Assembly (NCBI GenBank): GCA_001661245.1
Contig: KV454011.1
Coordinates: 1-64,000 of the forward strand
Reading direction: 5' to 3'
DNA from: Pachysolen tannophilus NRRL Y-2460
Lineage: Eukaryota
Length of the DNA stretch: 64,000 nt
The translations under genes were made by a program, and so were the position numbers. The notes below the pieces were generated by a model. It did no database searches, was not told the origin of the DNA, and saw nothing but the letters and a program-made list of their open reading frames with translations. Shown piece after piece: positions 1,926 through 53,270 of this stretch. Position 1 is the stretch's first letter. Every line of letters starts with the position of its first letter.

Positions 1926-3785
1926 ATGGCTACTGAATTTGAATCAAGATCTGAAGCTTCTCAAGAGCTTGAGAAGAATGAGGAAGTTCTTTCCAATGAA
2001 AGAACTTCAATTGAGACAGATGCTGAAATTCCAAAAAGGTCTTTCGCTATAAGAAAGACTGAGATTATTGCTGCTCAATACGATACTATCTATCACAAGT
2101 TCCTGATTTTATTTTGTGCCTTATTAGTCGGTTATGGTTATGGTTTAGATGGTAACATCAGATACGTCTTTACTTCATATGCTACTTCTGCTTACAGTAC
2201 CCATTCTTTATTGTCCACTGTTAACGTTATTGAGGCTGTTGTTGCTGCTGCTTCTCAGCCAGTTTACGCAAGATTGAGTGATGTTTTCGGTAGATTACAA
2301 TTATTCGTTGTTGCAATTATGTTTTACGTTGTTGGAACCATTATTCAATCACAGTCTTATGATGTTCAAAGATATGCTGGTGGTTCGGTTTTATATTATA
2401 TTGGTTACACCGGTATCATATTGGTCTTGTTATTAATCTTGTCAGATTTCTCTTCATTGAAATGGAGATTGTTCTATACTTTTGTTCCAACTTTCCCATT
2501 CATCATTAACACATGGATTAGTGGTAACATTACTGCTGAAGTCGGCGGTGATAACTGGAGTTGGGGTATTGGTATGTGGGCTTTCATATTTCCATTAAGT
2601 TGTGTACCAATGTTTTGTTGTATGGTACACATGAGATGGTTGGCAGGAAGATCTGAAGAATGGAAACAATTAATTGAAGAAGAAAAAGCAGAGAAGAAAG
2701 ACGTTACTAGCATTGCCTCTCGTTTTGTCACCTTCATGACCGAAATGTTCTGGAAATTAGATGTTATTGGTTTAATATTATTGGTTGCTTCATTAGGTTG
2801 TCTTTTAGTTCCTTTAACTTTAGCAGGTGGTGAAACCGAAAAATGGAGACATGGAAATATCATTGGTCCAATTGTTTTAGGTGGTGTCTTGATTCCAATC
2901 TTTATCATCTACGAACACTACTTTGCTAGATTCCCAATTGCTCCATTCAATTTGATCAAGGATCGTGGTGTTTGGTCAGCTCTTCTTATCTCTTTCTTAT
3001 TTGACTTCATTTACTATATGGCTTGTGACTACCTTTACACTGTCTTAATTATTGCAGTTAATGAATCTACCGAATCTGCGACAAGAATTTCCGTCATTTC
3101 ATCATTCGTTGGTGTCGTTGCCGCTCCATTCTACGGGTTGTTCATTGTTAAATTCAAAAGATTAAAGGGTTTCATTGCATTCGGTTGTGCTTTATGGTTC
3201 ACAGCATGTGGTATGTTAATGAGATACAGAGGTGGTGAAGAATCACACTCAGGTATTATTGGTGCTCTTTGTGTCATGGGTTTGGGTACCTGTTTCTTAA
3301 CTTATCCTATCAACGTTTCCTTACAATCTGTCACTTCCCATGAAAATATGGCTAACGTTAGTTCTTTGTGTTACACCACATACAGAATTGGTGCTGCTGT
3401 TGGTTCCGCTGTCTCAGGTGCTATCTGGACTCAAACTTTATACAAGAAAATCTTGGAATACATGGGTGATTCTACTTTAGCTGCTTCAGCTTATGCTTCT
3501 CCATATGAATTCATTTTAATTTACACTTGGGGTACTCCAGAAAGAGAAGCTTTAGTTAAGGCTTACAAATATGTCCAGAACTTGGAAACTTTAGTCGCAG
3601 TTGTATTCTGTGCTCCGTTATTTATCTGTGCTTTGTTCTTGAGAGATCCAAAGTTAACCGACGAACAAGCCAAAGAAGAATTGAAAGTTGGTGAAGAAGT
3701 TTACAAACGTGATGAAGACTTCATTGCTAACTGGTTCTACGGTCTGTGGAAAAAAGTCACCAAAAAAAACAATACCGAATGTTAA
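1926..3785 (+). CDS. Siderophore-iron MFS transporter (ARN/SIT1 family)
   Basis: 619-aa multi-TM ORF with ARN-family motifs GYGYGLDGNIRYVFT, ARLSDVFGR, PFIINTWISGN and WGTPER. Confidence 0.9.
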   Translation: MATEFESRSEASQELEKNEEVLSNERTSIETDAEIPKRSFAIRKTEIIAAQYDTIYHKFLILFCALLVGYGYGLDGNIRYVFTSYATSAYSTHSLLSTVNVIEAVVAAASQPVYARLSDVFGRLQLFVVAIMFYVVGTIIQSQSYDVQRYAGGSVLYYIGYTGIILVLLLILSDFSSLKWRLFYTFVPTFPFIINTWISGNITAEVGGDNWSWGIGMWAFIFPLSCVPMFCCMVHMRWLAGRSEEWKQLIEEEKAEKKDVTSIASRFVTFMTEMFWKLDVIGLILLVASLGCLLVPLTLAGGETEKWRHGNIIGPIVLGGVLIPIFIIYEHYFARFPIAPFNLIKDRGVWSALLISFLFDFIYYMACDYLYTVLIIAVNESTESATRISVISSFVGVVAAPFYGLFIVKFKRLKGFIAFGCALWFTACGMLMRYRGGEESHSGIIGALCVMGLGTCFLTYPINVSLQSVTSHENMANVSSLCYTTYRIGAAVGSAVSGAIWTQTLYKKILEYMGDSTLAASAYASPYEFILIYTWGTPEREALVKAYKYVQNLETLVAVVFCAPLFICALFLRDPKLTDEQAKEELKVGEEVYKRDEDFIANWFYGLWKKVTKKNNTEC

Positions 3786-4040: not shown

Positions 4041-5426
4041 TTATTTTTTAAGAGCAAACGAATGCGTCAAGGAGCTCTCTAAAAGTGAATTATCGTTATT
4101 ATTCATTCTATGACTACTAATTTTAAAGCAATCTGGCACTTCTTCATCCTCAATACTTGTTCCCTTTTTAATACAATTTGCAATAGCTTTACCACACAAC
4201 AAAATTCGAGGCATTCCATGTCCGTGGAATCCAGCAATTACAAATTTATTAGTCTCCGATACTGATTCACCCACGTACGGTAGTGAATCATTTGAATAAC
4301 CTAAAATACCTGGCCAAGCATAATCTACTACCGTATTTAAACTTTTCATCGATATAAAATGCTTTTGAAGCCAATTATCAAAATAGCGGTCTGTATTTTC
4401 AATTAAGTTCGAATCATCAACTACGTCGAAGAATTTTTCTCTGTAAGGGAAGATGTGTTTTTTAGCTCCTCCTACAACAATGGAACCATCCGGGCGTGGG
4501 ATCATGTAATCACTTTTTGACCCTGAGTAGCGGAGGCTATATGTATTTGTTAGATATGGAAGGCTCTCAGACTTACAAGCAGATACAATATGCGTACAAG
4601 TGCCTTTAATAGGAAAAATTTTTCCATCAAACTCTGGAGCAATAGCTTTAGTATATGCATTTGTTGCAATAACAATCTTATCCGCAAGTATATCACCCCT
4701 TGAAGTTTTGACTAAAAATTTATCATTATTCAATTTACTAGTTTTAATAACCATTGTATTGCTCTGTAAGTTCATGCCTTTTTTGATACAAATTTGCAAT
4801 AGAGCTACAACAAACTTGTAGGGCCATATTTGACCAGCTGGATAAGTTATACATGTTTCTGCATCCGGAACTTTTGAAATAATTTTTGCCGTTTCACCAA
4901 AATGTATTTGTATATCTTCCTTATTTTCAACTGAGCTATTTTTCATCATGGCGCTATAACCATCCACAGTTTTTTGTTGTTCTTCGGGAGTCATATCGAC
5001 GTCTACGGCCCTAGTCAATACTAAATCGCAAGCAATGTTTTCTTTTGAAACAAGTTTTGCAATTTCTTTAAAATTCTTATTTTCAAAATTGATAAGCTGG
5101 GCTGCGTTACTAGTTCCAAAATTTTTTGCATGCCTTAGATATCCTCTGTAGTTATCTGGTTTAATATGTCCGCCATTTCTGCCTGTGGCACCCGAGCAAA
5201 CATCTCTAGCCTCCAACATTACTATTTTAGGTGGAGTAGGATTATCTTGATATAAATAGTAAGCTGTTGACGCACCTGAAAACCCTGATCCAATTATAAC
5301 AACATCCAGCTCTTGAGGTAAAAAGTCTGTTGTTCGGTGATGCTTAAACTCATCAGACTCTGAGAGCCAAAAGGAAATCATTGGATTAGAAACTGGAAAA
5401 TAAGACTTAGTTGAGTCTGTCATCAT
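4041..5426 (-). CDS. FAD-dependent oxidoreductase, DAO/PuuB-like family
   Basis: DVVIIGSGFSG dinucleotide-binding motif, CSGATGRNGGH, C-terminal AGFHGHGMPRI. Confidence 0.88.
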   Translation of the reverse strand: MMTDSTKSYFPVSNPMISFWLSESDEFKHHRTTDFLPQELDVVIIGSGFSGASTAYYLYQDNPTPPKIVMLEARDVCSGATGRNGGHIKPDNYRGYLRHAKNFGTSNAAQLINFENKNFKEIAKLVSKENIACDLVLTRAVDVDMTPEEQQKTVDGYSAMMKNSSVENKEDIQIHFGETAKIISKVPDAETCITYPAGQIWPYKFVVALLQICIKKGMNLQSNTMVIKTSKLNNDKFLVKTSRGDILADKIVIATNAYTKAIAPEFDGKIFPIKGTCTHIVSACKSESLPYLTNTYSLRYSGSKSDYMIPRPDGSIVVGGAKKHIFPYREKFFDVVDDSNLIENTDRYFDNWLQKHFISMKSLNTVVDYAWPGILGYSNDSLPYVGESVSETNKFVIAGFHGHGMPRILLCGKAIANCIKKGTSIEDEEVPDCFKISSHRMNNNDNSLLESSLTHSFALKK

Positions 5427-5963: not shown

Positions 5964-6698
5964 ATGCCCTCAATTGTATTTGACATTGTTGGAACACTTA
6001 TATCTTACGAAAACTGTATTGCTGAAATAGAAAAGCAACTTGGAGATAGATTCAAGGCTGACAACATAAACCTGTCATTATTTTTCTTCTTTTGGTTGGC
6101 TGGTGCAGAAAGAGATTACTCGTATCTATCTCAATCGAATAATTATCAGCCTTTTTCCAAAATTATGGAATATACATTTTACAGGTCCTTGTTTTTTGCT
6201 GGTATAAAAACACCAAGACATTATTGTAGCCAAGATGAAGTCAATGAAATCATCAAGATTGGGTTTTTCAATTTAAGAGCAAGAAAACAAACCGAGGAAA
6301 CATTGAAGTTATTAGCTGAATATGGGTTTACTACCTATTTTTTAACAGATGCTTCTTCAGAAAGGGTGTTGAACTATTTTAAGAAATCAGGAATAGAAAT
6401 ATCCTCTGAAAATTTAATTTCTTGTGACTCCATTGATGCAGGAAAGCCGGAAGCTATTGTTTATCAGACTATGTCAAAAAGGTTGCCCGATAAACACAAG
6501 AATGACAAATGGTTCTTTGCAGCTCATATGTGGGATTCCTGCGCAGCCAGACAAGGAGATTTTAGAACTGCTTGGTCTGCAATTCATGAGTTTGAGCCGT
6601 GCACAGAGATTTTCGGAGAACCTGATGTACTTGGTGATGGTTTATTAGATACAGCTAGAAAGGTAATTGCCATGCATAAGACATTACTGGAAAAATAG
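5964..6698 (+). CDS. HAD-superfamily hydrolase, haloacid dehalogenase type II-like
   Basis: Motif I FDIVGTL, GKP motif III, AAHMWD motif IV. Confidence 0.85.
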   Translation: MPSIVFDIVGTLISYENCIAEIEKQLGDRFKADNINLSLFFFFWLAGAERDYSYLSQSNNYQPFSKIMEYTFYRSLFFAGIKTPRHYCSQDEVNEIIKIGFFNLRARKQTEETLKLLAEYGFTTYFLTDASSERVLNYFKKSGIEISSENLISCDSIDAGKPEAIVYQTMSKRLPDKHKNDKWFFAAHMWDSCAARQGDFRTAWSAIHEFEPCTEIFGEPDVLGDGLLDTARKVIAMHKTLLEK

Positions 6699-7021: not shown

Positions 7022-10000
7022 CTAAGTAGATTCTTTGACAATAGCCAAGCAATCACCAGGATTTACCATATCTCCTTCGTCAACAATGATTTCTAAAATC
7101 TCATAAAATTTGGCTTCTTTCTTGGTTTTGATTCTAACTGCGATTTCCATTTTCATTGCTTCTAGAACAATTAACACATCATCTTTTGTTACTTTATCAC
7201 CTTTTTTCACATTAACCTTGAAAATATTAGCAGCCATGCTAGACTGCACCTGGATATTATTAGGATCATTCAAGAGATTCAAATCTGAGTTTTTTGATGC
7301 TTTGGCAAGAGATTTTTCATGCATCCATTGATCCCATAATTTATTTTCCACCTTAGTTAGCTCTTCACAAGCTTTTATTTGTCTTTGTTTCAAAATAGCA
7401 GCTTCTTCAGCAATTGACTCCAAAAACTTTGTATATTCTTCAAAATCAAATAATGACTCTTTAGTATGAATTTTCAATTCACCAGTAATTAATTCATTAT
7501 TCAATTCAGCTAATTGTGGTTCATTTACTTCGTAAAATTCAATCTGGTCAAAATTCTTGAAAAACCAAGGTTTTCCACCAAAATCTTGGATTCTAGAAAA
7601 AGTATCCCAACATATATTTGGTAAAGTCATTCCCCAAATCATATATCCTCCTGGTGAGTCAACTGAATAAATTGAATGGCCGACAGCACCAGTACCAACA
7701 GCACCTCTTGGTGTAAAAGTTCTTGCCGGATTATACTTCTGAGTCATAAACCTCATTCTGGGATCTGGATGTGCAATCAAAGTATTAGCACATAAAAATG
7801 ATGCTGCAGTAATAATTTCAGGTTTACCGATAATTTTATCCTTGAAATCTTCAATCGTCTCTATACAACTAGCCTTCATGACAAATTTAGTGTTATCCGG
7901 TAGATAAGAAGCATATGGTCTTTGTGAATGCATGTAACGCTCAATACAATGTCTCAATGCGCTATGATCAAAACAAATTGGAAGTTTATAGATTTTTGAA
8001 GGAATCTTTAATTTATCAATTGGAGGAATTTTTGACTCTAAGTCAATTAATTTCTGTAATAATACCTTACGTGATATCTTAGAAGGATCAAAAACAAAAG
8101 CCATAGCACCAGTTGCTGATTCATATCTGATTAAACCATCTTTGAGATCATTATCATTTGAAGATTCAATTTCTAATTCTAATGCACGTTGTCTACCATT
8201 ATTCAATAGCGTGAAATGATCTATGCTGAAGTCAAGAATAATCATTTTTTCTCCGGCCTGACGAAATGTTACTTGTGGTAAGTCTTTACTCAGGTCAGCA
8301 CTCCTATATAATATAGGAGACGAAATATTTTTGTCATATATCAGGAGAGAGTCATCAAAGGGCACAGCATCCAAATCCGTAGGGAAAGAGCACAAATATT
8401 TGAGGAATTTTGTTCTTTGTTCAGAAAGCTTTCTGGAGTCCTCGTAGGTAATAAGTTCAAATCTAATTCCTGAGCCAATTTTAGCTTGTCCAAATTTCCA
8501 CCAGTCTGCTTCTGCAGGAACAGAAACGCATGTGAATCCCGACAAAGTGGCACCGTCAACACCAAATAACACTAATCCTGAACCTACAGCACTTAAGCCA
8601 CAAGTTGGGTACGGATACTCCAATATGTTACTAGGATGTGCACCACCATCTCCACCGGAATTTCTTGAAAAGATCATCGGAGGGCCATCTAGTTTAATTG
8701 CACCTCTATTCGAATTTAGGTTCACATGATAAACTGTGTTGTATAGTTGTTTTAAACCTTCATCACTACAAATCTCTTCTGAATCATGAGGTCCCCTTAG
8801 CATTCTAATGGTCCAGACATGATTTTCATCTAAAGAAAAGACTGGACGACACTTTATAGGCAAGCTATAACCCAAAGCCAACTCTTTGATTTCGTCCTTT
8901 GGATCAATTTCCAAACAGTCACCAGTGAATACAACACGACCTTGATGACCCCCTAATCCCAAGGTGGGAGTACAGGATTTTGATCCTAGGTAGTAAGCAA
9001 CTCCTGGGAAGCCTCCTTGAATTGATAAATAAGATTTAGAACCCTGATTTGAAGTTTCTCCAATTGTAACAACGCACCCAGCCGGAACTGTCAAAGCAGT
9101 ATACATTGGAACATCTTTGCCATCTATTTTAAATTCAAATTCACCACCTGTGAGTGCTATTACTGCTGTGGAGTGAAACTTTATCACGGGACCTCGTAAA
9201 CTAATTTCTAAACCTTCGGTGTTCATATCATTTCCCACGATGATATTTGCAATTTGTAAGCATAATGGATCAACTGGACCACTCAAAGGCACACCACCAT
9301 TACTTTTTTCACGACCTGGTAAATCCTGGATACTAGTATAGGCACCACCTTCTTCAAACTCCATAAGATGGGGTCTAAAATTGAATGATTTATTCAAAAA
9401 CGATGTTAATGTTAACCCATTTTGATACTCAAAAGAGTTTAAAATCTCTTTTAAGTACTCCACATTGGTTGGTGGTCCTTGTATCTTGATTGAGTTTAAA
9501 ACATCAACCATTCCAGATGTTGCAATTTTTCTTGTCTTTCCCCAAACCATAACTTTTGCTAATAATGGATCAAAATAAGGAGAAATTTTTGCACCAGTTG
9601 AAATCCAATGGTCTATTCTAATTTTAAAATCTTTAAATTCAGTGATGCTAGGGAATTCAACGTTATGTAGAATTCCCGGAGAAGGCTGAAAATTTCTTAT
9701 TGGGTTTTCAGCATATACTCTACATTCAATAGCATGACCTTGGGGAATTGCTACTCCATTTTCATCAACATCAAATGTACATTGCTCTTTCATGATTGAT
9801 AAAGGAATTCCAACTTGGCCTTTTGCTTCGTACTCTGCTTGTAGTAACATCATATAAACGAGATCAAGACCATAAATCAATTCTGTAATACCATGCTCCA
9901 CTTGTAGTCTCGTGTTCATTTCTAAAAAGTAATAATCACCACTATCATTATCAACAAGAAATTCTACAGTTCCTGCTGACTTATAATTCATACTTGAAGC

Positions 10001-10816
10001 AAGCCTAATAGCACACTCGGATAGATTTTTACGTAAACTCTTGTTATTATAATCGGGCAATTCAATAAATGGACTAGGTGCTTCTTCAACAACTTTTTGA
10101 TGACGACGTTGGATTGAACATTCTCTTTCACCGAAAGCCATTACATCGCCTTTTCCATTACCAAAAACTTGAATTTCAATGTGACGCCCATTCTCAACAT
10201 ATTTCTCCAAAAAAACACCAGTATTTTTGAATAACGACTCTCCTCTTGATTGAACTTCCTGAAAATTACTTTTCAATTCTGCTTCTTCATAACAAACTTT
10301 TAATCCCATACCTCCACCTCCTGCGGTTGCTTTTAACATGATTGGGTAACCTATTTTATTTGCGCACTCAATAACATCACTTTCCTTTTCTATTAAGTCA
10401 GAACCTGGTACAATAGGAACATTATTTTTACTAGCGATATCACGAGCAAAATGTTTTAAACCAAACAACTTAACCGACTCAGGACTTGGTCCAGCAAATA
10501 CAATTCCTTCTTTTTCCAAAGCCGCAGCAAAATCGGAATTTTCAGACAAAAACCCATAACCTGGTACTGCAACATCACAATAATGATCTTTTGCAACTTT
10601 TACAATTTGTTCAATGTCTAAATAAGCTGAAGCACCAACACCCTTTATTAAAACAGCAACATCAGCACTTGAAACATGTAGTGAATCCACATCTTCTTTT
10701 GTAAAAATGGAAACAGATTTCAATCCTAATTGCTTACAACTTTGAATTATTCTACAAGCAATTTCTCCTCTATTTGCTACAAGAACAGTTTTTATTTTCG
10801 TAAAGTGACTTTCCAT
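7022..10816 (-). CDS. Urea-carboxylase-like (LamA-like) biotin-dependent enzyme: BC + AHS2/PxpC-like + AHS1/PxpB-like + biotin carrier, no amidase domain
   Basis: VLVANRGEIA, GYGFLSEN, RECSIQRRHQKV, EMNTRLQVEH, HPSN, KYNPARTFTP, SPGGY, EAMKM biotin site; first ATG is 10816 (the ORF track starts at an upstream TTG). Confidence 0.9.
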   Translation of the reverse strand: MESHFTKIKTVLVANRGEIACRIIQSCKQLGLKSVSIFTKEDVDSLHVSSADVAVLIKGVGASAYLDIEQIVKVAKDHYCDVAVPGYGFLSENSDFAAALEKEGIVFAGPSPESVKLFGLKHFARDIASKNNVPIVPGSDLIEKESDVIECANKIGYPIMLKATAGGGGMGLKVCYEEAELKSNFQEVQSRGESLFKNTGVFLEKYVENGRHIEIQVFGNGKGDVMAFGERECSIQRRHQKVVEEAPSPFIELPDYNNKSLRKNLSECAIRLASSMNYKSAGTVEFLVDNDSGDYYFLEMNTRLQVEHGITELIYGLDLVYMMLLQAEYEAKGQVGIPLSIMKEQCTFDVDENGVAIPQGHAIECRVYAENPIRNFQPSPGILHNVEFPSITEFKDFKIRIDHWISTGAKISPYFDPLLAKVMVWGKTRKIATSGMVDVLNSIKIQGPPTNVEYLKEILNSFEYQNGLTLTSFLNKSFNFRPHLMEFEEGGAYTSIQDLPGREKSNGGVPLSGPVDPLCLQIANIIVGNDMNTEGLEISLRGPVIKFHSTAVIALTGGEFEFKIDGKDVPMYTALTVPAGCVVTIGETSNQGSKSYLSIQGGFPGVAYYLGSKSCTPTLGLGGHQGRVVFTGDCLEIDPKDEIKELALGYSLPIKCRPVFSLDENHVWTIRMLRGPHDSEEICSDEGLKQLYNTVYHVNLNSNRGAIKLDGPPMIFSRNSGGDGGAHPSNILEYPYPTCGLSAVGSGLVLFGVDGATLSGFTCVSVPAEADWWKFGQAKIGSGIRFELITYEDSRKLSEQRTKFLKYLCSFPTDLDAVPFDDSLLIYDKNISSPILYRSADLSKDLPQVTFRQAGEKMIILDFSIDHFTLLNNGRQRALELEIESSNDNDLKDGLIRYESATGAMAFVFDPSKISRKVLLQKLIDLESKIPPIDKLKIPSKIYKLPICFDHSALRHCIERYMHSQRPYASYLPDNTKFVMKASCIETIEDFKDKIIGKPEIITAASFLCANTLIAHPDPRMRFMTQKYNPARTFTPRGAVGTGAVGHSIYSVDSPGGYMIWGMTLPNICWDTFSRIQDFGGKPWFFKNFDQIEFYEVNEPQLAELNNELITGELKIHTKESLFDFEEYTKFLESIAEEAAILKQRQIKACEELTKVENKLWDQWMHEKSLAKASKNSDLNLLNDPNNIQVQSSMAANIFKVNVKKGDKVTKDDVLIVLEAMKMEIAVRIKTKKEAKFYEILEIIVDEGDMVNPGDCLAIVKEST

Positions 10817-11619
10817 ATTTGTTAAAAATTTCAATTGTCTAAGATTTGATAAAAGAAAAGATTATTTTATTTTCACTGTGAAGTTCCAATTAATTTATGT
10901 TCGTTTTCCACAAAGTTCATGATGAGGTTGATTTGAAAATCAAGTCAAGATAAGGCAGTCGTAACCGCTAAAGCATTTCTGCTATAGGTTTTCTTGCTTT
11001 TTTCTGTTTTTTTCATTTTTATTATTATATCTCTTTGCCGCTACTACTTTCAAGTAAGGTAAGCCCACCGGTGTTTTATCATATACTTACTACTCATTTC
11101 TGATAGGGGATCAAAATGAGATTCTTGGAAGTGTTTGCGCTAAAACTGAATTCGGCAAGGGCATATGCAAGATAATGCATAGTATGTGCCTTTAAGCTGT
11201 AAGATAAAAAATACCAGCATCTCTTTGAATCATTTCATAGACTATTAGAATTCTTTTATTATTGTGTGTTTCTGTTCTTATCTCACCACAGGTTTGGATC
11301 AGCTATTAGCGGCTGATGAGAGTTAATATTACTCAATTTATTATTATTTAGATGGAAGATCAAAAAATAAAAAAAAAAAAAAGTAAGTGTTGAGCATATT
11401 ATATATTACAAAGCTTTGCTTATCCTCAAATTCGAAGTGAGAAATAATAAATACGTTATCTGCAGAAACGTTTCCATAAATATATTAACCTCAAACTTCA
11501 CTGTTTGATTTTTTTTTTTTTTTTTCTCATTTATTCTTTAAAAGAGAAGTTACTCTACTGTTTGATTCTTTGGTTTTATTTTGAGCTTCAAAGTTGTTTA
11601 AAATATCAACAAAGCACAA
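10817..11619. promoter_or_regulatory. Divergent promoter (carboxylase/transporter), GATA-rich, nitrogen catabolite repression type
   Basis: GATAAG 10949; CTTATC 11277 and 11419; GATAA 10848, 11171, 11203. Confidence 0.65.
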
Positions 11620-13749
11620 ATGAGTACCGAAAATACTATTCAAATCTTTTCTGTTGGCACAGGCTATGGGTATGTTGTTGGGGTAGGCTTTGCGTTTGCT
11701 CTCATTATGTGTTTTGTTTCTTGGCTTCTTTCCAAATATCTTAGTGAGGTCCAGGATTCAGAAATGTTAATGACAGCAAAGAGATCAATTAAGACCGGTT
11801 TGACTGCAAGTGCGGTGGTCTCATCTTGGACGATAGGTTCAACTTTACTTTTATCCTGCACTGAAACTTACACTTATGGTGTTGCTAGTGCATGGTGGTA
11901 TGGTGCTGGTGCCTGTGTACAAATTGTTATATTTTGTACAGCTGCAATTGAATTGAAAAGAAGAGCACCAAATGCACATACTATTCAAGAAGCTTTGTTA
12001 AAAAGATATGGTACCAAAGCACACATTGTTTCATTATGTTATTGCTTAGGTCAACAAATTGCATATTCGGCCAATTTATTAATTAATGGTGCTTCAATAT
12101 TTAGTAATTTAACTGGTATGAACAATGATGCTGCCATTGCCCTATTTCCTGTTGGTGTTATAGTGTATACTTTATTGGGTGGTATCAAGGCTACTTTCTT
12201 AACAGATTGGACTCATACAGTTATAATTTACGTATTAATGTTGACTTTTTCATTTTCTTGTTACGCTACAAATGAAGACATAGGCTCTCCAGGTAAGTTG
12301 TTTGATCTTTTGGTTACTGCTTCCGATAGAAGGCAAATATCTGGAAACCGCGATGGTAGTTTATTGACTTTTGACTCACGTCAGTCTGGATTATTTGGTC
12401 TTGTCTTATTTGGAGCAGGTTGGGCTGCCTCAGTTGACTCTCAATTGTTCCAAAAGGCAATTGCATGCGATATTGGATCTCCAAAAAACAAATTATCTGG
12501 TGTTTTAGTATCGTACACTCTTGGCTCGCTTTGTTGGTTTACAATTCCGTTTGTTTTATCTACAACCTTGGGTTTAGCTTGCGCGGGACTAGAAGGTACT
12601 GATGCATTCCCAACTACTTCTCATTATATGACAAGTGCAGAGATTTCAGCTGGTTTGGTTATGCCTTACGGTGCGTATGCTTTATTAGGTAGAAGTGGAA
12701 TGGCTATGGTTTTGACAATGATTTTCATGGCCGTTACTGCTGCATTTTCTTCAGAGACAGTTGCTGTTTCATCATTAATTACCCATGATATATACAAGAC
12801 ATATATCAACCCTGATGCCAAAGGCAAAAAATTAATTGCAATTTCACATATGGGTGTTCTTGCTTTTGGTGCTGTGACAATAGGTTTAGGAATTGGCTTG
12901 GCACATGCCGGTTTTGACGTTTCGTTCATCACTACTGTTTCAGGTATTGTGGTCAATGTTTGTGTAATTCCAATGGGTTGCACTTTATTTTGGGACAGGA
13001 TGACTTCTTTCAATTTCATATGTAGTACTACCATATCATCTTGTATTTCACTTGCAGTGTGGATCGGTTATACTGCTCATCAGTCTGGTAACAATGTTAC
13101 GCTAACAAGTCTTTCAACGAATGAGGCGTTAGCTGCTGGTAACACTGTTGCCATTTTTGCTCCAGCATTGTTAATACCAATTTTTTATTTCGTTAAAAAG
13201 CCAAAGGAAAGATTTGACTGGAGCAAATTGCTAGAAATCAGACAGGATGATAATACTGAATATGACCAAGAGCATGGGTTACAAAACGTTTTGTCTGGTG
13301 ACGAGGCAACAAAATTAGCCGTAGAAGAAAATTTAAAGAATGACCAATTCATGGTCAGGCAAAGAAATTTAGGTGCTTGTGTTGCAGGCTTCTTAGTTTT
13401 CTTTTATTTGATTATTTTCCCATTACCACTCTATGGTTCTCATTATGTTTTCTCAAAAGATTTTTTCACAGGTTGGGTAGTTGTTATGTTCCTTTGGGCC
13501 TTTTTTTCAGCAATAACAATTACCTGTTTGCCAATATATGAGGCTAGGTACTCTATCAAGATGTTATTTGAACTTATTACTGGTAAACAGAAAAAATTTG
13601 ACAATACTATCAGTATTGTTGAATCCAAAGAATCTGGATTTGCTTCAGGCTCACTGGCAGGTGCCTTGAGTGGATCACACGATAAAGAAACTAAAATCGT
13701 CACAAATGTTTCTCCAAAAGCTGATTATGAGAGTAGTTTTGACCCATAA
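11620..13749 (+). CDS. Dur3-like sodium:solute symporter family transporter (urea/amine type)
   Basis: GLTASAVVSSWT, ELKRRAPNAHT, GGIKATFLTDWTHT, FMAVTAAFSSE, DIYKTYINP. Confidence 0.88.
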   Translation: MSTENTIQIFSVGTGYGYVVGVGFAFALIMCFVSWLLSKYLSEVQDSEMLMTAKRSIKTGLTASAVVSSWTIGSTLLLSCTETYTYGVASAWWYGAGACVQIVIFCTAAIELKRRAPNAHTIQEALLKRYGTKAHIVSLCYCLGQQIAYSANLLINGASIFSNLTGMNNDAAIALFPVGVIVYTLLGGIKATFLTDWTHTVIIYVLMLTFSFSCYATNEDIGSPGKLFDLLVTASDRRQISGNRDGSLLTFDSRQSGLFGLVLFGAGWAASVDSQLFQKAIACDIGSPKNKLSGVLVSYTLGSLCWFTIPFVLSTTLGLACAGLEGTDAFPTTSHYMTSAEISAGLVMPYGAYALLGRSGMAMVLTMIFMAVTAAFSSETVAVSSLITHDIYKTYINPDAKGKKLIAISHMGVLAFGAVTIGLGIGLAHAGFDVSFITTVSGIVVNVCVIPMGCTLFWDRMTSFNFICSTTISSCISLAVWIGYTAHQSGNNVTLTSLSTNEALAAGNTVAIFAPALLIPIFYFVKKPKERFDWSKLLEIRQDDNTEYDQEHGLQNVLSGDEATKLAVEENLKNDQFMVRQRNLGACVAGFLVFFYLIIFPLPLYGSHYVFSKDFFTGWVVVMFLWAFFSAITITCLPIYEARYSIKMLFELITGKQKKFDNTISIVESKESGFASGSLAGALSGSHDKETKIVTNVSPKADYESSFDP

Positions 13750-13945: not shown

Positions 13946-14716
13946 TTAAGTCTTTAATGAAAATCCAAGCTGTTTATTTACTTTGTCAATAGCTTCTCTC
14001 GCTTTTATGACATTTTCAAGAGCTGTTGGCATGTCTGAATGTAAACAAACACTAAATGGAGCATCTCCAAATCCAATATTCAATTCTTCGCCGTTATTGT
14101 CAAAGCATGATCCAGTTGTACCACACTTATAAATAGAGTCATAAATTTCTTGTGGAGTTTTCATTTGTGATTTTGCTGGTAAGACAAGATTACCTTCAGA
14201 ATTCCAATCTATATCACAATAAAATTCTTGAATAAATGGAACACCTTCTTCCTTGGCAATTTGTTCATAATGTGCATTTTTAGCACCTACAATTGGAACA
14301 TTAAATGTCTTTGCTGCTTTTAATGCTGCTCTCATTACATCTTCATTTTGTTCAATATAAAAATATAATTGACCATGAGGTTTAATATAAGACAATTCCA
14401 TACCTTCTGATTTCAAAAACCCATATAAGGCTCCTGTTTGATAAATGATCAAATTATAAATTTCTTCAGGAGCAATTTCCCATGGACGGCGACCAAACCC
14501 AATTTTATCTGGTAATCCTGGATGTGATCCCACCTTGACATTATACTGTTTTGCCAATTTAACAGTTTTCTTCATAATATTGTAATCACCTGCATGGAAA
14601 CCACATGCAATATTTGCACTATCAATATATGGCATGATTTCATCGTCAGGCCCCATTTTCCAACGACCATAACCTTCTCCCATGTCACAGTTTATTTCAA
14701 ATCTTGGTAAAAGCGT
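13946..14716 (-). CDS. LamB/YcsF (PxpA, 5-oxoprolinase subunit A) family protein; start codon uncertain
   Basis: Frame stays open upstream of the ATG at 14683, giving FEINCDMGEGYG; ANIACGFHAGD, GSHPGLPD, YIKPHGQLY, VCLHSD; 14716 is an ACG candidate start. Confidence 0.88.
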   Translation of the reverse strand, partial: TLLPRFEINCDMGEGYGRWKMGPDDEIMPYIDSANIACGFHAGDYNIMKKTVKLAKQYNVKVGSHPGLPDKIGFGRRPWEIAPEEIYNLIIYQTGALYGFLKSEGMELSYIKPHGQLYFYIEQNEDVMRAALKAAKTFNVPIVGAKNAHYEQIAKEEGVPFIQEFYCDIDWNSEGNLVLPAKSQMKTPQEIYDSIYKCGTTGSCFDNNGEELNIGFGDAPFSVCLHSDMPTALENVIKAREAIDKVNKQLGFSLKT

Positions 14717-15109
14717 TTTATTACTTAAAGCTTGCCCAAAGTTCCTCCACCACTATTAAGTGACAATCTCCTCTTCAGCAGCATCGCCAAAATATTCAAT
14801 TTCTACCTCAAAAAAAAAAAAAAAAAAATACAATCAATCAAATACTATAGTAGATATATATCTCTGTCCAATTTCTAAAATGTTTTCATTTTCAATTTTA
14901 AATTTTAATTTTTACGTCAAAATTTTTTGATATTTCCCAAACTACTAAATATGTATACAAATACATATTATATACACACAATATATATAAATAAAAAGAA
15001 TATATAAACAACCTTCAAAAGTTCTCTATCTGGATAACGAGATGGAATGGTAGGGAGGAGATATATAATGTAAAAACGAATGTCTTGGATCTTGTGAAAT
15101 CATTTATGT

Positions 15110-27832: not shown

Positions 27833-29674
27833 ATGTCTACTAGAGATATACCACATTCTTTTTCTCAATTTGCTACAGGATGGATTCCTAGAGCTAGAAA
27901 AGAGATTACTCTTAATAAATCTACTGGAGAAATTGTTGAAAAAATCGCTCCTGTTGCTCCAGCTGAAAATATTTTCTCTGAAGTTGATGATGAAATTTCA
28001 GATAGAGTTAGAACTAAAAGTTTATGGGCAATTTTCACTGCAGGTGCCGGTTTATTTTCTGATGGTTATGTCAATAACTCTATATCAACAGTATCAACTT
28101 GTTTAAAAATTCTTTATCCAACAGAATACGCTGATAGTAGAGCAATATCAAATGTTTCATCTATTGTATTTGCAGGTACCGTTTTAGGTCAGTTAATCTT
28201 TGGGGTATGGTCAGATTACTTCTCAAGAAAAAATGCAATGATCACTTCCACAGTAATCTTGATCGTGTTCACTATATTAACATCTGGTTCATGGGGTTAT
28301 AAAGGTTCCATTAATGGTATGCTTGTAAGTAAAAGTAAAGTGTTTTTTTTTTTCTTTTCTCTTTTCTCTTTTCCCCCATTGGAAGATAGATAGCACATGC
28401 CATGCTGCCCTCTGGTCACCGTGCACACTATCTCTTTTAAAAGCAAAATGCGCGAAAAAATAGGGGAAAAATTTGAAAAAACAGAAAAAAGGTTTGCAAA
28501 AGATAATAATAAATAATAAGTTACTAACATTTGAAAAATACATTTTTTTTAGGCTGCATTAACTGCATACAGATTTTTCTTGGGTATTGGTATTGGAGGA
28601 GAATACCCAGCAGGATCAGTTGCATGCGCAGAGGCATCATCGTTGTTACCTCCTGGTAAAAGAAATAGGTATTTCTGTTGGTTTACTAATTTTATGATTG
28701 ATTCCGGGTTTGTTGTTTCTGCATTTGTTCCAATGGTGATGTTGTGGATCTGTACTCCTAAGCATTTAACTCCGGTTTGGAGAGTAACTTTGGGTTTAGG
28801 TGCAATTCCACCAATTTCATTATTTTTCATGCGTTTAATGTTTCAAGAGGGAAAACAATTTAAAAAATTGAATTTTAAAAGAACTAGAGTACCATATTGG
28901 TTGGTTATAAAATTTTATTGGTTTAGATTGGCTGTTGTTTCTATTATTTGGTTTATTTATGATTTTAGTAGTTATGCTTTTGGTCTTTATTCTTCAAATA
29001 TCTTGGATATAATTATTCCAGATGGTGATTTATACAAGACTTTTGGTTGGAATGTTGTCTTAAACTTATTTTATATTCCAGGTGCATTTTTAGGTGCAAT
29101 TTCTGCAGATTATTTTGGACCAAGACTTACATTAGCAGCTGGTGTCTCTTTACAATCAATTGTTGGTTATATCATGGCTGGTTGTTTTGAACCTTTATCA
29201 AAACATGTTGGGGGTTTTGTTGTTGTTTATGGTATCTTTTTAACATTGGGAGAATTTGGACCTGGTGATTGTATTGGTTTATTATCTTCAAAGACTTCAG
29301 CAACTCCAATTAGAGGTCAATATTACGGTATTGCTGCTGCTATTGGTAAAGTTGGTGCCTTTGTAGGTACTTATCTTTTCCCAATTATCCAAGATGATGC
29401 AGGTGGTGCTTCTACAATTAAAGGTGAACAAGCTCCATTTTGGGTTGCTTCATCCCTTTGTGTATTTAGTGCATTTTTAACTTTATTTTTCTTGCCTCCT
29501 GTTGATCAAGAAGCTGTTGAAAATGAAGATAAGACTTTCATTACCTACCTTCATGATTCAGGTTTCGATATCAGCTTATTGGGTGATGCAGATGAAACTT
29601 CAAGTGGACTGTCTTCAAATGATGAACATGAGGTTGAACAAATTGTTACTGAAACTCATGTTGATAAATCATAA
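27833..29674 (+). CDS. Glycerophosphodiester (GIT1-family) MFS transporter; 2 exons (27833-28324, 28553-29674)
   Basis: Intron 28325 GTAAGT...TACTAAC(28522)...TAG 28552 joins GSINGML to AALTAYRFFLGIGIGGEYP; GAGLFSDGYVNN; GEFGPGD. Confidence 0.9.
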
Positions 29675-43967: not shown

Positions 43968-45725
43968 TCAACACCAGAAATGACAAAATTTTTTCCAAAA
44001 TGAATGTGTTTTACGTTGTTCTTTTTCTTCAAGTTTTTCCATCTTTAATACATCTGCATCAAAAAATGTTCTATCTGAGACAATATCAATATCTTCTGCC
44101 CTGAGGAAAAGTTTCCAATTTTTCTTGTATATCTTATGACAGACGTAGAAAACTAATAATACACATCCTCCTAAATAACTTTGGAAAAAATTGTTTGCAT
44201 TTGGTTTACCATCTCCACCTGCAGGCCATAAACCTACCCAAAACTGAGCTATTAAGATTAAAATATCAATAGTAACAGCATAATACGAACCAATTAATCC
44301 AGTATTTGCTACATATCCCAACTCATCAGTTGAATGACCCTGAGCTTTAAGGGCCGCTCTAAACCGAATATGTGAAATACAAATTGACATCCAAGTAAAA
44401 ATTTGACTTAAACCTGAAATTGCTAATAACCAGTTGAATATAGTTTCTTCTTGATCACAAGCTGCTACAAAGGAAAATAATCCGAAAAATGCAGAAATTG
44501 CTAAAGCTCTTGATGGTCTACCCAGTCTGTCAATATAGTTGAAAAACTTTGGAGCAAACCCTTGTTCGGATAAACTTTGTAAAGTTCTTGAAGCAGAATA
44601 TAAGGCAGAGTTACCAACGGATAAAACTGAAAGTAAAATAACGGCATTAATTATATGTGGTACGACTTTAACATGATGTAATTTGGCGGAAAGAACAAAT
44701 GGTGAAGCATGAGTTGCACTTTCACCGGAACCCATCAACTCGTCAGAGTTACTTGGTACTAATAATCCTACTAAAGTTAAAGACCCTAAAAAGAAAACAA
44801 CAATTCTCCAAAACAATTGTTTTGATGCAGTTGGAATTGTCTTTCTTGGATTTGCTTGTTCTGCACATGTAAGAACAACAAATTCACTTTGACCAAGTGA
44901 AAATGCTGCAGTAACGAAAACTGTACATAAACCTTTAAATCCATAATTAAAAGCACCTGGATCATGCCAATACCTTCCACCAATGTATTCATTATCTGGA
45001 TTTTTACCACAATCAACAATAATACCAAATAATATAAACCCAGTCAACATTATCACTTTACAACTGTTAAAGAAAAATTCAGCTTCTCCATAACCTTTTG
45101 ATCCACAAAAATTTATAATTACAATCAACACATAAAATATTGCTACAAATGCATCCGGATTAACAGTAGTTGTCCAATATTTTATTGTTATGGAACCAGT
45201 AACCAACTCTAATGAAATAACACAAAGCCACTGTATACAATAATTCCAACCAACACTAAAACCAAAAGATTCATCTATAAGTCTTGCAGCGTATGCATTA
45301 AACCCACCACTAAGGTTTTGATAAGCAACGGCTAATTCACCTCCACTTTGAATGGTTGGGAACAACATCGTTCCCACTATAGCATAACCAATTAATAAAC
45401 TCAGAGGACCACCTTTAACTAAACTTTTGGCAGAACCAACTAAAAGACCTGTACCTATACCTGTGGATAGAGCAATCATAATAACATGACGTGTATGCAA
45501 ATCTTGTTTTAACTTGATTTTTCTATCATCTCTTATTATAACTTGACTTTCATCTTCTTCTTCTTCTTCTTCAAAACAAGTCTCATCGTCTTGATTCCTT
45601 CTAAACGAATCAACAACTCTAGTCCATCTTGATTTCACAGGTTGAAATGAACCCGTTTTCATGACATTCAAGTCCGACGTCGTTTCCAGCTCCTGTTCAA
45701 CAGAGCAATCAGTTTTCTTAAGCAT
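43968..45725 (-). CDS. Amino-acid permease (YAT family, Gnp1/Agp1/Tat-like)
   Basis: RHVIMIALSTGIGTGLLVG, GYGEAEF, C-terminal FWC. Confidence 0.92.
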   Translation of the reverse strand: MLKKTDCSVEQELETTSDLNVMKTGSFQPVKSRWTRVVDSFRRNQDDETCFEEEEEEDESQVIIRDDRKIKLKQDLHTRHVIMIALSTGIGTGLLVGSAKSLVKGGPLSLLIGYAIVGTMLFPTIQSGGELAVAYQNLSGGFNAYAARLIDESFGFSVGWNYCIQWLCVISLELVTGSITIKYWTTTVNPDAFVAIFYVLIVIINFCGSKGYGEAEFFFNSCKVIMLTGFILFGIIVDCGKNPDNEYIGGRYWHDPGAFNYGFKGLCTVFVTAAFSLGQSEFVVLTCAEQANPRKTIPTASKQLFWRIVVFFLGSLTLVGLLVPSNSDELMGSGESATHASPFVLSAKLHHVKVVPHIINAVILLSVLSVGNSALYSASRTLQSLSEQGFAPKFFNYIDRLGRPSRALAISAFFGLFSFVAACDQEETIFNWLLAISGLSQIFTWMSICISHIRFRAALKAQGHSTDELGYVANTGLIGSYYAVTIDILILIAQFWVGLWPAGGDGKPNANNFFQSYLGGCVLLVFYVCHKIYKKNWKLFLRAEDIDIVSDRTFFDADVLKMEKLEEKEQRKTHSFWKKFCHFWC

Positions 45726-46276
45726 TACACTGAATAATTAATGTGTAGTATAAGCAAAACAAAGTATAGAAAACTCCGAAATATTTAAAACTATTTTTTT
45801 ATTTTTTCTTTTTTTTATTCTTTTTTTTTATATGTTCTCATTAAATTATTATAAATGATATTATTCTACTTATATGATCAGCTCTACGAGACGAAAACTT
45901 TTCTAATAAACTCTTAGGTAAAATAGCTTTTACCCCCAAAATCAAGTAAAACGGGAAACTATTAGCAGTAAAAGCCGTCTTAAAACTACATCTTGTGCGG
46001 CGATGGGATTGTCTTATGCATAAAAATAAAATATTCTGCATACGCCATTGCCTAACCTCTCTATTTGTTCCTTATTTGGACGAAAAAAATTTTTTTGATG
46101 TATTTTTATACACGGGAAGATGTTTAGGGAAGGTGATGCGGTGTTGACCGCAGTGTTAAAATATACATCAAGTGTACACCGAGTGTAGATCAAGTGTAGA
46201 TCAAGTACAATTTGTGATAATGAAGCTGAAGTCTATTTATTAAATTATATTATTTACTTTAAACTACTAGGTGAGT

Positions 46277-49200: not shown

Positions 49201-49513
49201 ATTCTGATTCTTCTTCTATTTTACGTTTTTTGCCAGCTGAAAAATTTGCCGATCCACCTCTTCGACTTTCAACAAATATACATTCTCTTCTCTCTCTTCT
49301 ACAACGTGCACATGGTGGATCATTGGGAAAATCAACGCTTCCAAGATCACATTTAACCTTTCGTGTCCGACAGTTTAAACAAGCCTTATAATTCCTTTTA
49401 AATTTCTTTTGTTGTGGATCTGGGGAAGAGTTTCTTGAGCCAAAACTCTCATCAGCAACCGGAGATTTTTGTTGTTGGAAATCATTATCTCTAGAAGTTA
49501 TATGGCCGTTCAT
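46277..49513 (-). CDS. ARO80: Zn(II)2Cys6 transcription factor Aro80
   Basis: ACLNCRTRKVKCDLG...PPCARCRRERRECIF; FTEWNPRAIHW; EASPDELHLCTRYS; GLDFVEPWTE. Confidence 0.88.
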   Translation of the reverse strand: MNGHITSRDNDFQQQKSPVADESFGSRNSSPDPQQKKFKRNYKACLNCRTRKVKCDLGSVDFPNDPPCARCRRERRECIFVESRRGGSANFSAGKKRKIEEESELPSKNNILNDGTVTQLWPSQKAPTRGILESSYSGLNANSNNNNNNNNSHNSKPILPTNYNQVALNLNVSSNLYEYQLNRGYQDRNGKLPPPTALVNTNSNSNSGDVQNQYTRRMLNMDSNVDTSLPPIRVLAPQVPGSNSRDNIVEPLEPTKNSNNNRQVSDITQFNSDQNALEFLAKAAGNFAKADERDRIDAREKHNALDKVSNTSKLISRENSDLDLNTYTAATSQPLTTANSTSSNYTSPDFQQDSSIQNLKFSSARPIITAKNSSQQFSMPMVDHLESVIPKPSSRLSDIEYIGEDSILSERGARKLINLFFTTMHPFFPHIPPNLMDPDILAGYPILLCAILTISSRYHSFTETEEANENVKNMQENAELNDASKSNTVHSHIEVHERLWIYCQRLISQTVWAEASTRSIGTVFSFLLFTEWNPRAIHWRWSDYANKPEYNDGDEANIQSGPDSSGDGDGLAGLGAMRRSARMGWMLIGSAVRLAQDMGFMENSSRVFLACHISETHCAMNVSRRSMLSNSLSEIDLDTDDEDEGEETNVLNNVNEKTKKSKHKEADEDDLVLNDDEEGLRHKTDTKLKFSKMQKAKIELLQIMSICFENLYVVRPKLEALNKRQNLAILNILSPLLENWHKRFKSLLVTSNIHNFHSINSHNQQILNFNSKYSKELNNQVDRESLIFDYYYARLYIYSLALTDFNQNKAVNSNSSGSEKYNKKQNELRLDEISKSAKYVELAFNSAKEMLACTQRIHRLKMLKYMPVRWVTRVVRAVAFVVKYYLTITSLQSSNNSTNSGTTVNSKIVALSLIPLEEVLSIIQKAAITLREASPDELHLCTRYSTILMYLCSEMKIKIASKRHSNLEKGWENNQEPGNEQSCSIDNLNNEKEDTQKHLHKNSSVSQFQKQQTNNVANNENLQHGKLNVTDTHPLDQDFYPFPPDTVFDWFNNDNGGIGLDFVEPWTEMIEQHINKVD

Positions 49514-52946: not shown

Positions 52947-53270
52947 AAAGAGCCAAAGAAAGCAATAAGCAAAAAAAAAAAAAAGAAATTAAATATAATT
53001 AAATAAACTGTTTGTAAATTGAATAAATAATTTTTAATTCGTATTGGTTTTCGTAAAAAGGTAAAAATGTGAGATTTGTTAATTTTCATGTATGTACTAA
53101 GTAATACAAATTCCCCGCCAATCTAGAATTAGACATAAATATTAATATTAATATTAATATAAATATATAAATATATATCTACATATATATACGAGCAAGA
53201 ATATTATTGAATCTTTAGTTATCATTAGTGTAATTGAGCAGTTGAGTAATTGCAATTGGATTTTTCAAAA

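Follow-up and report, generated by a model that had tools for sequence, protein, structure and literature searches.

The stretch of DNA analyzed here, 64,000 nucleotides of Pachysolen tannophilus NRRL Y-2460 (contig KV454011.1, positions 1 to 64,000, referred to below as the window), is yeast-like, with a low GC content (about 0.23-0.35) and well-spaced open reading frames (ORFs), and encodes on its minus strand, at 7022..10816 (stop codon included, ATG at 10816), a LamA-type biotin-dependent carboxylase of 1264 amino acids. We regard it as moderately probable that this protein represents the fungal LamA-type enzyme in Saccharomycotina, with a pocket unfit for urea or guanidine, and that, together with a DUR3-like permease and a LamB/YcsF hydrolase encoded beside it, it makes up an ATP- and biotin-dependent, lactam-opening module for the scavenging of nitrogen. 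This reading is anchored in the domain set, the retained catalytic residues, the replaced substrate residues, the clade membership and the linkage of the genes.

The frame of the carboxylase is enclosed in a minus-strand ORF running from 7022 to 10834, with the Met start at 10816, and Pfam recognizes in it a biotin carboxylase part, a carboxyltransferase (CT) part and a biotin carrier, all of them intact. The biotin carboxylase (ATP-grasp) part (residues 8-477; 9386..10795, minus strand) matches Biotin_carb_N, CPSase_L_D2 and Biotin_carb_C with E values of 1e-30 to 1e-57, and its GGGGMG glycine-rich loop and EMNTRLQVEH block are invariant in 36/36 aligned sequences. The CT part is composed of KipA/PxpC-like subdomains A and B (residues 508-787; 8456..9295, minus strand; CT_A_B, E 1.1e-65), within which the altered HPSN...S-A-V-G-S loop is located, and of KipI/PxpB-like subdomains C and D (residues 850-1064; 7625..8269, minus strand; CT_C_D, 41.7 bits for a cut-off of 22.1). 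The biotin carboxyl carrier domain (residues 1190-1259; 7040..7249, minus strand; Biotin_lipoyl) harbors the EAMKM site at residues 1219-1223 (7148-7162), with the biotinyl-lysine Lys1222 encoded at 7151-7153; across the 36-sequence alignment, no variation is seen at E1219, M1221 or K1222, and at least 90% of the sequences have A1220. The original prediction had described KYNPART and the biotin EAMKM site as intact and the biotin chemistry as kept; both sites are present in the 1264-residue ORF, and the biotin carboxylase domains, the Biotin_lipoyl match and the invariance of the loop, of EMNTRLQVEH and of the AMKM lysine bear this out.

The public model of the carboxylase, P0002 (1105 amino acids), begins at Met160 of the ORF, leaving out window positions 10339-10816 and with them the entire Biotin_carb_N domain; the frame upstream of Met160 is open and conserved in comparison with K. 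lactis from residue 8 onwards, and P0002 looks truncated at its 5' end. The two proteins are identical at 1103/1105 positions, the two differences being the residues encoded by the gene's sole CTG codons (8291-8293, residue 842, and 8342-8344, residue 825), which are Ala and not Leu in P0002. Ala at both codons fits CUG-as-alanine decoding (NCBI table 26), and residues 825 and 842 lie outside all the motifs analyzed.

The best solved relative of the carboxylase, matched over its full length by HMMER (E 1.4e-236), is the K. lactis urea carboxylase 3va7; 5i8i, the K. lactis urea amidolyase, holds the same urea carboxylase chain and was also aligned. The yeast carboxylase (as the window protein is called here) and K. 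lactis DUR1,2 share the order of biotin carboxylase, CT and biotin carboxyl carrier protein (BCCP) domains, the Lys1605/Tyr1628 pair, the HPSN and KYNP anchors and about 35% identity over the CT part; they differ in that DUR1,2 is fused to an amidase, whereas no amidase domain is found by Pfam in the 1264-residue chain. K. lactis residues are numbered below as in the urea amidolyase (3va7 chain number plus 593, the KYNP lysine thus being 1605) and were mapped through sequence alignments anchored on the invariant HPSN, KYNP and SPGGY blocks, an AlphaFold2 model of the CT domain built on a seven-sequence alignment being too poor for the purpose (mean pLDDT 44.3).

Two altered motifs, which the original prediction had placed at about 8575-8638 and 7785-7816, were found within two bases of these positions on the minus strand. 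The first, HPSNILEYPYPTCGLSAVGSG (residues 727-747; 8576..8638), aligns in HMMER to K. lactis HPSNAHDYVYSLGAINFTGDE of 3va7/5i8i; in the second, IITAASFLCA (residues 1001-1010; 7787..7816), ITAAS-FLCAN stands opposite K. lactis GLGDVFLGS. His1315, Asn1318, Tyr1322 and Gly1333 are kept, while Asp1321 is replaced by Glu733, Asn1330 by Ser742, Phe1331 by Ala, Thr1332 by Val744 and Asp1334 by Ser746, which gives a Ser-Ala-Val-Gly-Ser pocket loop; further on, Gly1583 is replaced by Ser1006 and Asp1584 of the canonical LGLGDV is deleted. Asp1584, Asn1330 and Asp1334 are said, from work by Fan et al. in 2012, to be in contact with urea. The urea-binding residues are thus not conserved in the alignment to the K. 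lactis enzyme, as had been proposed; two acidic side chains and one amide side chain have been lost from the pocket and Ser, Val, Ala and Cys gained, a composition better suited to a methylene-rich ring than to urea. In comparison, the catalytic stretch from KYNPART (7718-7738) through Tyr1050 (7667..7738, minus strand) is retained, with Lys1027 and Tyr1050 in the places of Lys1605 and Tyr1628. Lys1605 has been described as the likely general base, and the K1605A variant is strongly impaired (PMC5770610). The motif HPSNxHDxxY of the original prediction needs one correction, as Tyr1322 is not conserved in canonical enzymes (Tyr in 8/31 canonical rows of the alignment introduced below). Bacterial guanidine carboxylase, formerly called "urea carboxylase" and found under guanidine riboswitches, has the same architecture and biotin chemistry. 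Urea and guanidine enzymes are told apart by Asn versus Asp at one active-site position (PMC12186494), in agreement with the original prediction; guanidine carboxylases have Asp at 1330 (7/31 canonical rows) and keep LGLGDV, whereas the yeast carboxylase has Ser and lacks Asp1584.

This pocket is shared by a whole clade of yeast proteins. Among 1.84 billion representatives searched with HMMER, 7483 matches were obtained, of which the best 150 were listed; a search with the CT part, in clusters of 90% identity, listed the best 120 of 335 matches, among them a yeast clade (P0003-P0062) and Pezizomycotina-type proteins (P0063-P0121). Over the CT part, the 60 listed yeast clusters share 45-66% identity with the query, and their named sources, among the matches listed, are almost all Saccharomycotina (Scheffersomyces, Wickerhamomyces, Candida boidinii, Yamadazyma, Zygosaccharomyces, Meyerozyma, Ogataea, Brettanomyces, Pichia and Tortispora). 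The position of Asp1321 is Glu and that of Asn1330 is Ser in 60/60 of them; Thr1332 is replaced by Val in 55 and by Ile in four (Thr in one), and Asp1334 by Ser in 47, Asn in nine and Gly in one (Asp in three), while the KYNP lysine is kept in all 60. Since these substitutions are fixed across the listed clusters, they are not the drift of one gene. P0007, a member of this clade, is labeled Cerrena zonata, a basidiomycete.

An alignment of 107 CT domains (31 yeast, 16 Pezizomycotina, 31 canonical and 29 other rows) places the changes in two layers. The column after Gly1583 is Asp in 31/31 canonical rows and a gap in 31/31 yeast and 16/16 Pezizomycotina rows; Asp1321 is present in all 31 canonical rows, and the position of Asn1330 is occupied there by Asn (19), Asp (7), Ser (3) or Met (2). 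The equivalents of Lys1605 and Tyr1628 are found in every yeast, Pezizomycotina and canonical row (31/31, 16/16 and 31/31). The Pezizomycotina-type clusters, which come from Pezizomycotina wherever a source is named, resemble the yeast clade in lacking Asp1584 and in having Glu for Asp1321, and carry Glu, Asn and Asp at positions 1321, 1330 and 1334 in 59/59; their pocket loop reads Asn-Trp-Thr-Gly-Asp in place of the Ser-x-Val-Gly-Ser of yeasts (first position 59/59 versus 60/60), and the Ser at Gly1583 is, unlike the Asp1584 loss, confined to the yeast side of this comparison. The loss of Asp1584 and the change of Asp1321 to Glu, whose breadth the original prediction had missed, are thus common to a whole fungal radiation, and only the changes at Asn1330, Thr1332, Asp1334 and Gly1583 are special to the yeast clade. 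In all, 17 positions at which canonical and Pezizomycotina clades have the same conserved residue differ in the yeast clade, among them Gly759Ser, Gly1006Ser, Thr615Cys, Trp716Phe and, at 873, a conserved Arg replaced by Asn. Because the replacement residues at these 17 positions are themselves conserved, the pocket is remodeled and not decaying.

Family scores and trees point the same way. With TIGR02712, the NCBI urea-carboxylase equivalog, the yeast carboxylase matches over its full length but scores 1164.7, below the cut-off of 1303.85, which 5/5 canonical control proteins pass (1353-1807; the DUR1,2-type P0129 scores 1806.8). The other non-canonical fungal proteins tried also fail (9/9, or 10/10 with the query; range 1102-1285), with three Pezizomycotina proteins at 1258-1285, three yeast proteins at 1102-1233 and three others at 1167-1262. 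Trees were built with FastTree (84 rows) and as an IQ-TREE quick tree (64 rows), with SH-type support, after thinning the yeast and Pezizomycotina rows and dropping P0156, P0175, P0182, P0210, P0212 and P0221 as degenerate. In both, the canonical "LGDV" proteins form one branch (support 100 and 99) with the query outside it, and the yeast clade (100 and 100) and the Pezizomycotina clade (99 and 99) are each one branch; the latter two lie in the same half of both trees, although the support of the branch joining them is only 62-66. Other non-canonical lineages are fungal where named, as six of ten looked up are (Ustilago, Seiridium, Colletotrichum, Microdochium, Exophiala, Naematelia). The yeast carboxylase would accordingly be placed, on its sequence, in a fungal radiation devoid of Asp1584. 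The first branch of the yeast clade is Tortispora, whose pocket is still Ser-Phe-Thr-Gly-Asp; this early branching suggests that the pocket was changed stepwise.

The genes next to the carboxylase supply the second line of evidence. A divergent promoter of 803 bp (10817..11619), rich in GATA-factor core sites, separates the carboxylase from a plus-strand gene (11620..13749) for a DUR3-like sodium:solute symporter permease of 709 amino acids (Pfam SSF, TIGR00813), which is the likely importer of the carboxylase substrate; its relatives bear the source names "urea active transporter" and SSS-family transporter. Two of these relatives, P0307 and P0315 (Dacryopinax, Calocera), are 61% identical to it, while listed Pezizomycotina matches reach 49% at most; like P0007 above, these basidiomycete-labeled relatives could stem from contamination or from gene transfer between yeasts and basidiomycetes. 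Beyond the permease, 3.1 kb from the carboxylase start, lies the main exon of a LamB/YcsF (PxpA-like) hydrolase (13946..14752, minus strand; Pfam LamB_YcsF, E 2.8e-76), in which all the invariants of the LamB family are present; a public protein 100% identical to it has the UniRef name "Lactam utiliz...". Its 5' end is harder to define: the frame has its first ATG at 14683, downstream of the codons for EINCDMGEG, the conserved start of LamB-family proteins; it is closed by two stop codons (14753-14758), and a further ATG, at 14783, belongs to a different frame. The public model P0405 places, by tblastn, an uncertain upstream exon of 17 codons at 14916..14966 (minus strand), which would leave a candidate intron of 163 bases beginning GTAAAA.

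The promoter between carboxylase and permease contains eight GATAA (10.0/kb, versus 4.1/kb over all intergenic DNA of the window) and three GATAAG sites, at most a hint that the genes could be under nitrogen control. GATAAG is not enriched over the window (31 found for 35.8 expected); the highest GATAA density is that of the 196-bp spacer between permease and LamB (15.3/kb), and among divergent promoters the local density is notable only here and between the DAO and HAD genes described below.

The carboxylase, the permease and LamB constitute a conserved three-gene set, and their linkage recurs in other yeasts. It was gauged there by a proxy, identical longest-contig sizes between clusters, and the counts are a lower bound: 20 of the 60 listed yeast carboxylase clusters share a contig with the permease and 20 with LamB; 10 share one with both, and 30 with one partner or more. 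Of the contigs joining carboxylase and LamB, 15 are shorter than 50 kb (e.g., 7969, 8411, 10973, 12486 and 12600 bases). Locus tags of permease and LamB are adjacent in Ogataea philodendri, Yamadazyma tenuis, Ascochyta lentis and Claussenomyces, and in Brettanomyces naardenensis all three genes are on one contig, though not adjacent by tag.

Gene order can be seen directly in metagenome contigs, which were scanned with the CT alignment; the 80 loci kept were sorted by motif into 68 canonical loci (66 showing LGLGDV and two ending before it) and 12 non-canonical ones, of which one is yeast-type (L001, 54% identical) and 11 are Pezizomycotina-type. In this test of LamB association, which covered fungal-type loci, a tblastn match to the window LamB is found beside 7/12 non-canonical and 0/68 canonical loci. 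In all seven, LamB is encoded immediately upstream of where the carboxylase begins and on the other strand, so that it is divergently upstream in 7/8 Pezizomycotina-type loci that have upstream DNA; in this they differ from the window, where the permease stands between and carboxylase and LamB are not divergent neighbors. Loci L001, L003, L007 and L010, which have no LamB match, end before the relevant DNA. No tblastn match to the permease was obtained in the 80 loci, the seven with LamB included, and the permease is thus not part of the sampled Dothideomycete-like loci. L001 (6.5 kb) is too short to reach a permease or LamB and also lacks the DAO, HAD and MFS neighbors.

An allophanate hydrolase query, in turn, matches 50/68 canonical and 0/12 non-canonical loci, and this bears on the alternative that the protein is a true urea carboxylase with a divergent pocket and that its label is right. 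The shared domain order and CT identity with the K. lactis enzyme, the full-length TIGR02712 match and the adjoining "urea active transporter"-like permease would all accommodate such a view, as would the occurrence of Ser1330 in P0153, a protein of about 1840 amino acids which also matches allophanate hydrolase. However, the protein stays below a curated cut-off passed by every canonical control, Asp1584 is deleted and none of Asp1321, Asn1330, Thr1332 and Asp1334 is kept, and no match to allophanate hydrolase or amidase was obtained by Pfam among the 31 ORFs of at least 150 amino acids in the window. In addition, a related CT module without the key residues had no urea activity (PMC13012033), and urea amidolyase has been reported in Saccharomycetes, the class of this yeast (PMC3073912). 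A urea carboxylase is, therefore, in our judgment very unlikely. As for guanidine, no DUF1989-type (carboxyguanidine deiminase) match was obtained by Pfam among the window ORFs. The pocket, the cut-off, the trees and the LamB linkage together support the claim of the original prediction that the acceptor is probably neither urea nor guanidine and that a urea carboxylase label would mislead; that the carboxylase does not carboxylate urea is what we infer from its sequence.

A more serious contender keeps the chemistry of urea carboxylase and changes only the acceptor: the protein would be a carboxylase of an open-chain amide or ureide other than urea or guanidine (acetamide, formamide, a substituted urea, biuret), and LamB would hydrolyze the N-carboxy product in the way allophanate hydrolase does for urea. 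The retained Lys and Tyr, the DUR3-like permease partner and GATA-rich promoters suggestive of nitrogen scavenging are compatible with it. Against it, the polar residues needed for a second amide or amino group have been lost from the pocket, the only known genetic phenotype of a lamA/lamB pair is the use of lactams (PMC8016842), and the LamB/PxpA family has so far been tied to ring amides. We consider an open-chain acceptor quite unlikely.

The preferred reading, a lactam-opening module, draws on fungal and bacterial precedents. Aspergillus nidulans LamA, described as a "putative urea carboxylase" and supported genetically in the utilization of 2-pyrrolidinone, is a urea-carboxylase-like biotin protein of about 1240 amino acids without amidase and has a LamB/YcsF partner, all of which resembles the 1264-residue yeast carboxylase and its neighbor. 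Its gene, lamA, presumably belongs to the Pezizomycotina clade that lacks Asp1584. Under the control of AmdR, lamA and lamB serve A. nidulans in the catabolism of lactams (PMC8016842). In bacteria, the prokaryotic 5-oxoprolinase PxpABC (E. coli YbgJ/K/L, 5DUD; B. subtilis KipI/KipA/YcsF) performs an ATP-driven opening of a lactam ring, the kind of reaction proposed for the yeast module. LamB is a relative of PxpA, to which the metal-dependent lactamase role is ascribed (PMC8453981); CT subdomains A/B correspond to PxpC and C/D to PxpB, and the profile reaches YbgK/PxpC of 5dud with an E value of 8e-44. PxpABC paralogues are needed for growth on butyrolactam and 5-oxoproline, the growth of P. 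putida on butyrolactam being the case in which a paralogue is required (bioRxiv 10.1101/2021.12.09.472016). PxpB and PxpC differ from the yeast enzyme in being separate proteins without a biotin carboxylase or carrier, whereas the yeast parts are fused to both. The lamA/lamB phenotype, the PxpABC paralogues, the presumed role of PxpA as lactamase part and the parallel with urea amidolyase are the grounds on which the opening of a lactam, and with it the class of acceptor, N-carboxylation as the activating step and the action of LamB on a carboxylated intermediate, are proposed here.

In such a module, the permease would bring in a small, neutral lactam (cyclic amide) of the class of 2-pyrrolidinone or valerolactam, and the biotin carboxylase domain would use ATP and bicarbonate to carboxylate the biotin on Lys1222. 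The carrier would then swing to the CT site, where, with Lys1027 as base, the carboxyl group would be passed to the ring amide nitrogen; LamB would hydrolyze the activated N-carboxy-lactam, and the resulting carbamate would lose CO2 to yield an omega-amino acid. A complex prediction of the CT part (residues 490-1110) with LamB, in which alignments were not used, scored 0.00 and has no bearing on binding.

The kinship with PxpABC also allows for a biotin-dependent opener of a carboxylated lactam, in which carboxybiotin would do on 5-oxoproline, or on the six-ring 6-oxopipecolate, what PxpABC does with ATP directly. In keeping with this, the best named relatives of LamB are PxpA subfamily models, PxpC and PxpB (5dud) are homologues of the CT subdomains, and a DAO-family oxidase 1.6 kb from the carboxylase counts L-pipecolate oxidase among its weak best matches. 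However, the score with the PxpC equivalog is 110 for a cut-off of 500; the pocket has gained Ser, Val and Cys but no basic residue for a carboxylate and has lost Arg873 to Asn; and the named members of the DUR3-like permease group carry, to go by their names, small neutral amides and not anions. A convergence of the yeast pocket on PxpC was considered and rejected, as E. coli PxpC (YbgK) has no HPSN loop. On these grounds we judge a carboxylated lactam unlikely as the acceptor.

A further relative was described by cryo-EM in 2026: the pair MSMEG_0435-0436, of the KipA/KipI type, bound to the AccA3 BCCP of an acyl-CoA carboxylase from mycobacteria (9YX5, PMC13012033). Like the yeast enzyme, it is a CT module without the key urea-carboxylase residues that takes up BCCP-biotin, and it has no urea carboxylase activity; it differs in being made of split proteins that borrow the biotin carboxylase-BCCP of an acyl-CoA carboxylase, and has been read as regulatory. 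The pair may be regarded as a natural "split" relative of the fused yeast enzyme. It also raises the prospect that the yeast carboxylase is a regulator or a biotin-sequestering protein, as proposed for KipI/KipA and MSMEG_0435-0436, and such regulatory readings of homologous CT modules (PMC13012033) speak in its favor; but the yeast protein is equipped with a full biotin carboxylase and carrier of its own, the catalytic motifs of which are invariant, its catalytic Lys and Tyr are conserved throughout, and a permease and a hydrolase are linked to it, all of which makes a regulatory role exceedingly unlikely.

Several points weigh against the lactam-opening reading. Ser at the Asn1330 position is also found in 3/31 canonical rows (the two of these proteins that were checked, P0153 among them, are of about 1840 amino acids), so Asn1330Ser alone would not be decisive; the case rests on its combination with the loss of Asp1584, the clade, the cut-off and the gene context. 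The permease family is named for urea. LamB falls just under the cut-offs of the PxpA subfamily models (218.3 for 226 and 206.2 for 213), and its 5' end is ambiguous. The same-contig evidence in yeasts consists of equal contig sizes and not of gene order that was seen, and one Pezizomycotina-type locus, L061, has 8.6 kb of upstream DNA and no LamB. The placement of lamA is drawn from its size, its taxon and a divergent arrangement with LamB, and as the pockets of yeasts and Pezizomycotina differ, 2-pyrrolidinone may not carry over to the yeast enzyme.

A lactam other than 2-pyrrolidinone is thus a live possibility for the substrate of the yeast enzyme. More tentatively, the yeast branch may have rebuilt its pocket in steps and gained a dedicated permease, and so have switched its acceptor from that of A. 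nidulans LamA. Under such a switch, Asp1584 would have been lost first, followed by the Ser-Phe-Thr-Gly-Asp stage of Tortispora and then by the Ser-x-Val-Gly-Ser of later members, with Gly1583Ser, Thr615Cys, Trp716Phe, Gly759Ser and Arg873Asn as further changes; candidate acceptors would be a larger or more hydrophobic ring amide (valerolactam, caprolactam) or another cyclic amide. If this is true, the switch would define a second specificity class of biotin-dependent lactam openers, contained in one easily expressed eukaryotic polypeptide.

On the other side of the carboxylase are genes which may be part of the same nitrogen-scavenging cluster: a haloacid-dehalogenase-type (HAD) hydrolase (5964-6698, plus strand; Pfam), the DAO-family FAD oxidase already mentioned (4041-5426, minus strand), whose weak best matches also include a putative aminophosphonate oxidoreductase, and a DHA2-like MFS transporter (1926-3785). 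The divergent promoter between the DAO and HAD genes has 13.0 GATAA per kb, the second-highest density of the intergenic regions of the window. Further away, more genes related to nitrogen, namely an amino-acid permease with an adjoining Zn2Cys6 transcription factor and a flavin amine oxidase, are found at 43968-49513 and 53250-54689. A recent tandem duplication probably gave rise to two HAD-family ORFs of 233 amino acids (57951-58652 and 59075-59776), which lie about 1.1 kb apart and do not differ in their Pfam scores (63.1 and 56.0 bits). A Sugar_tr gene appears as two ORFs, 27833-28393 and 28580-29674, matching the N- and C-terminal parts of the profile, which could reflect an intron or a broken gene.

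In terms of nomenclature, members of the yeast clade have been labeled "urea carboxylase", "urea amidolyase", "related to DUR1,2" and even "pyruvate carboxylase 2" by their sources, labels that mislead on present evidence; the TIGR02712 cut-off combined with Asp1584 provides a simple rule for sorting "urea carboxylase" annotations. According to a survey of 2011 (PMC3073912), urea-carboxylase-like genes of the stand-alone kind are "completely absent" from Saccharomycetes; with at least 60 clusters at 90% identity, the named ones almost all Saccharomycotina, that statement is outdated. No paper was found that assigns the LamA-type reaction or describes the yeast clade, in a literature whose subscription part is mostly not searchable. 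The kind of system is known genetically as lamA/lamB, and the new element is the yeast-specific pocket with its dedicated permease. The fused yeast enzyme and the small LamB constitute a convenient pair for a first LamA/LamB assay, and the breakdown of nylon monomers and solvents lends practical interest to opening stable lactams with ATP.

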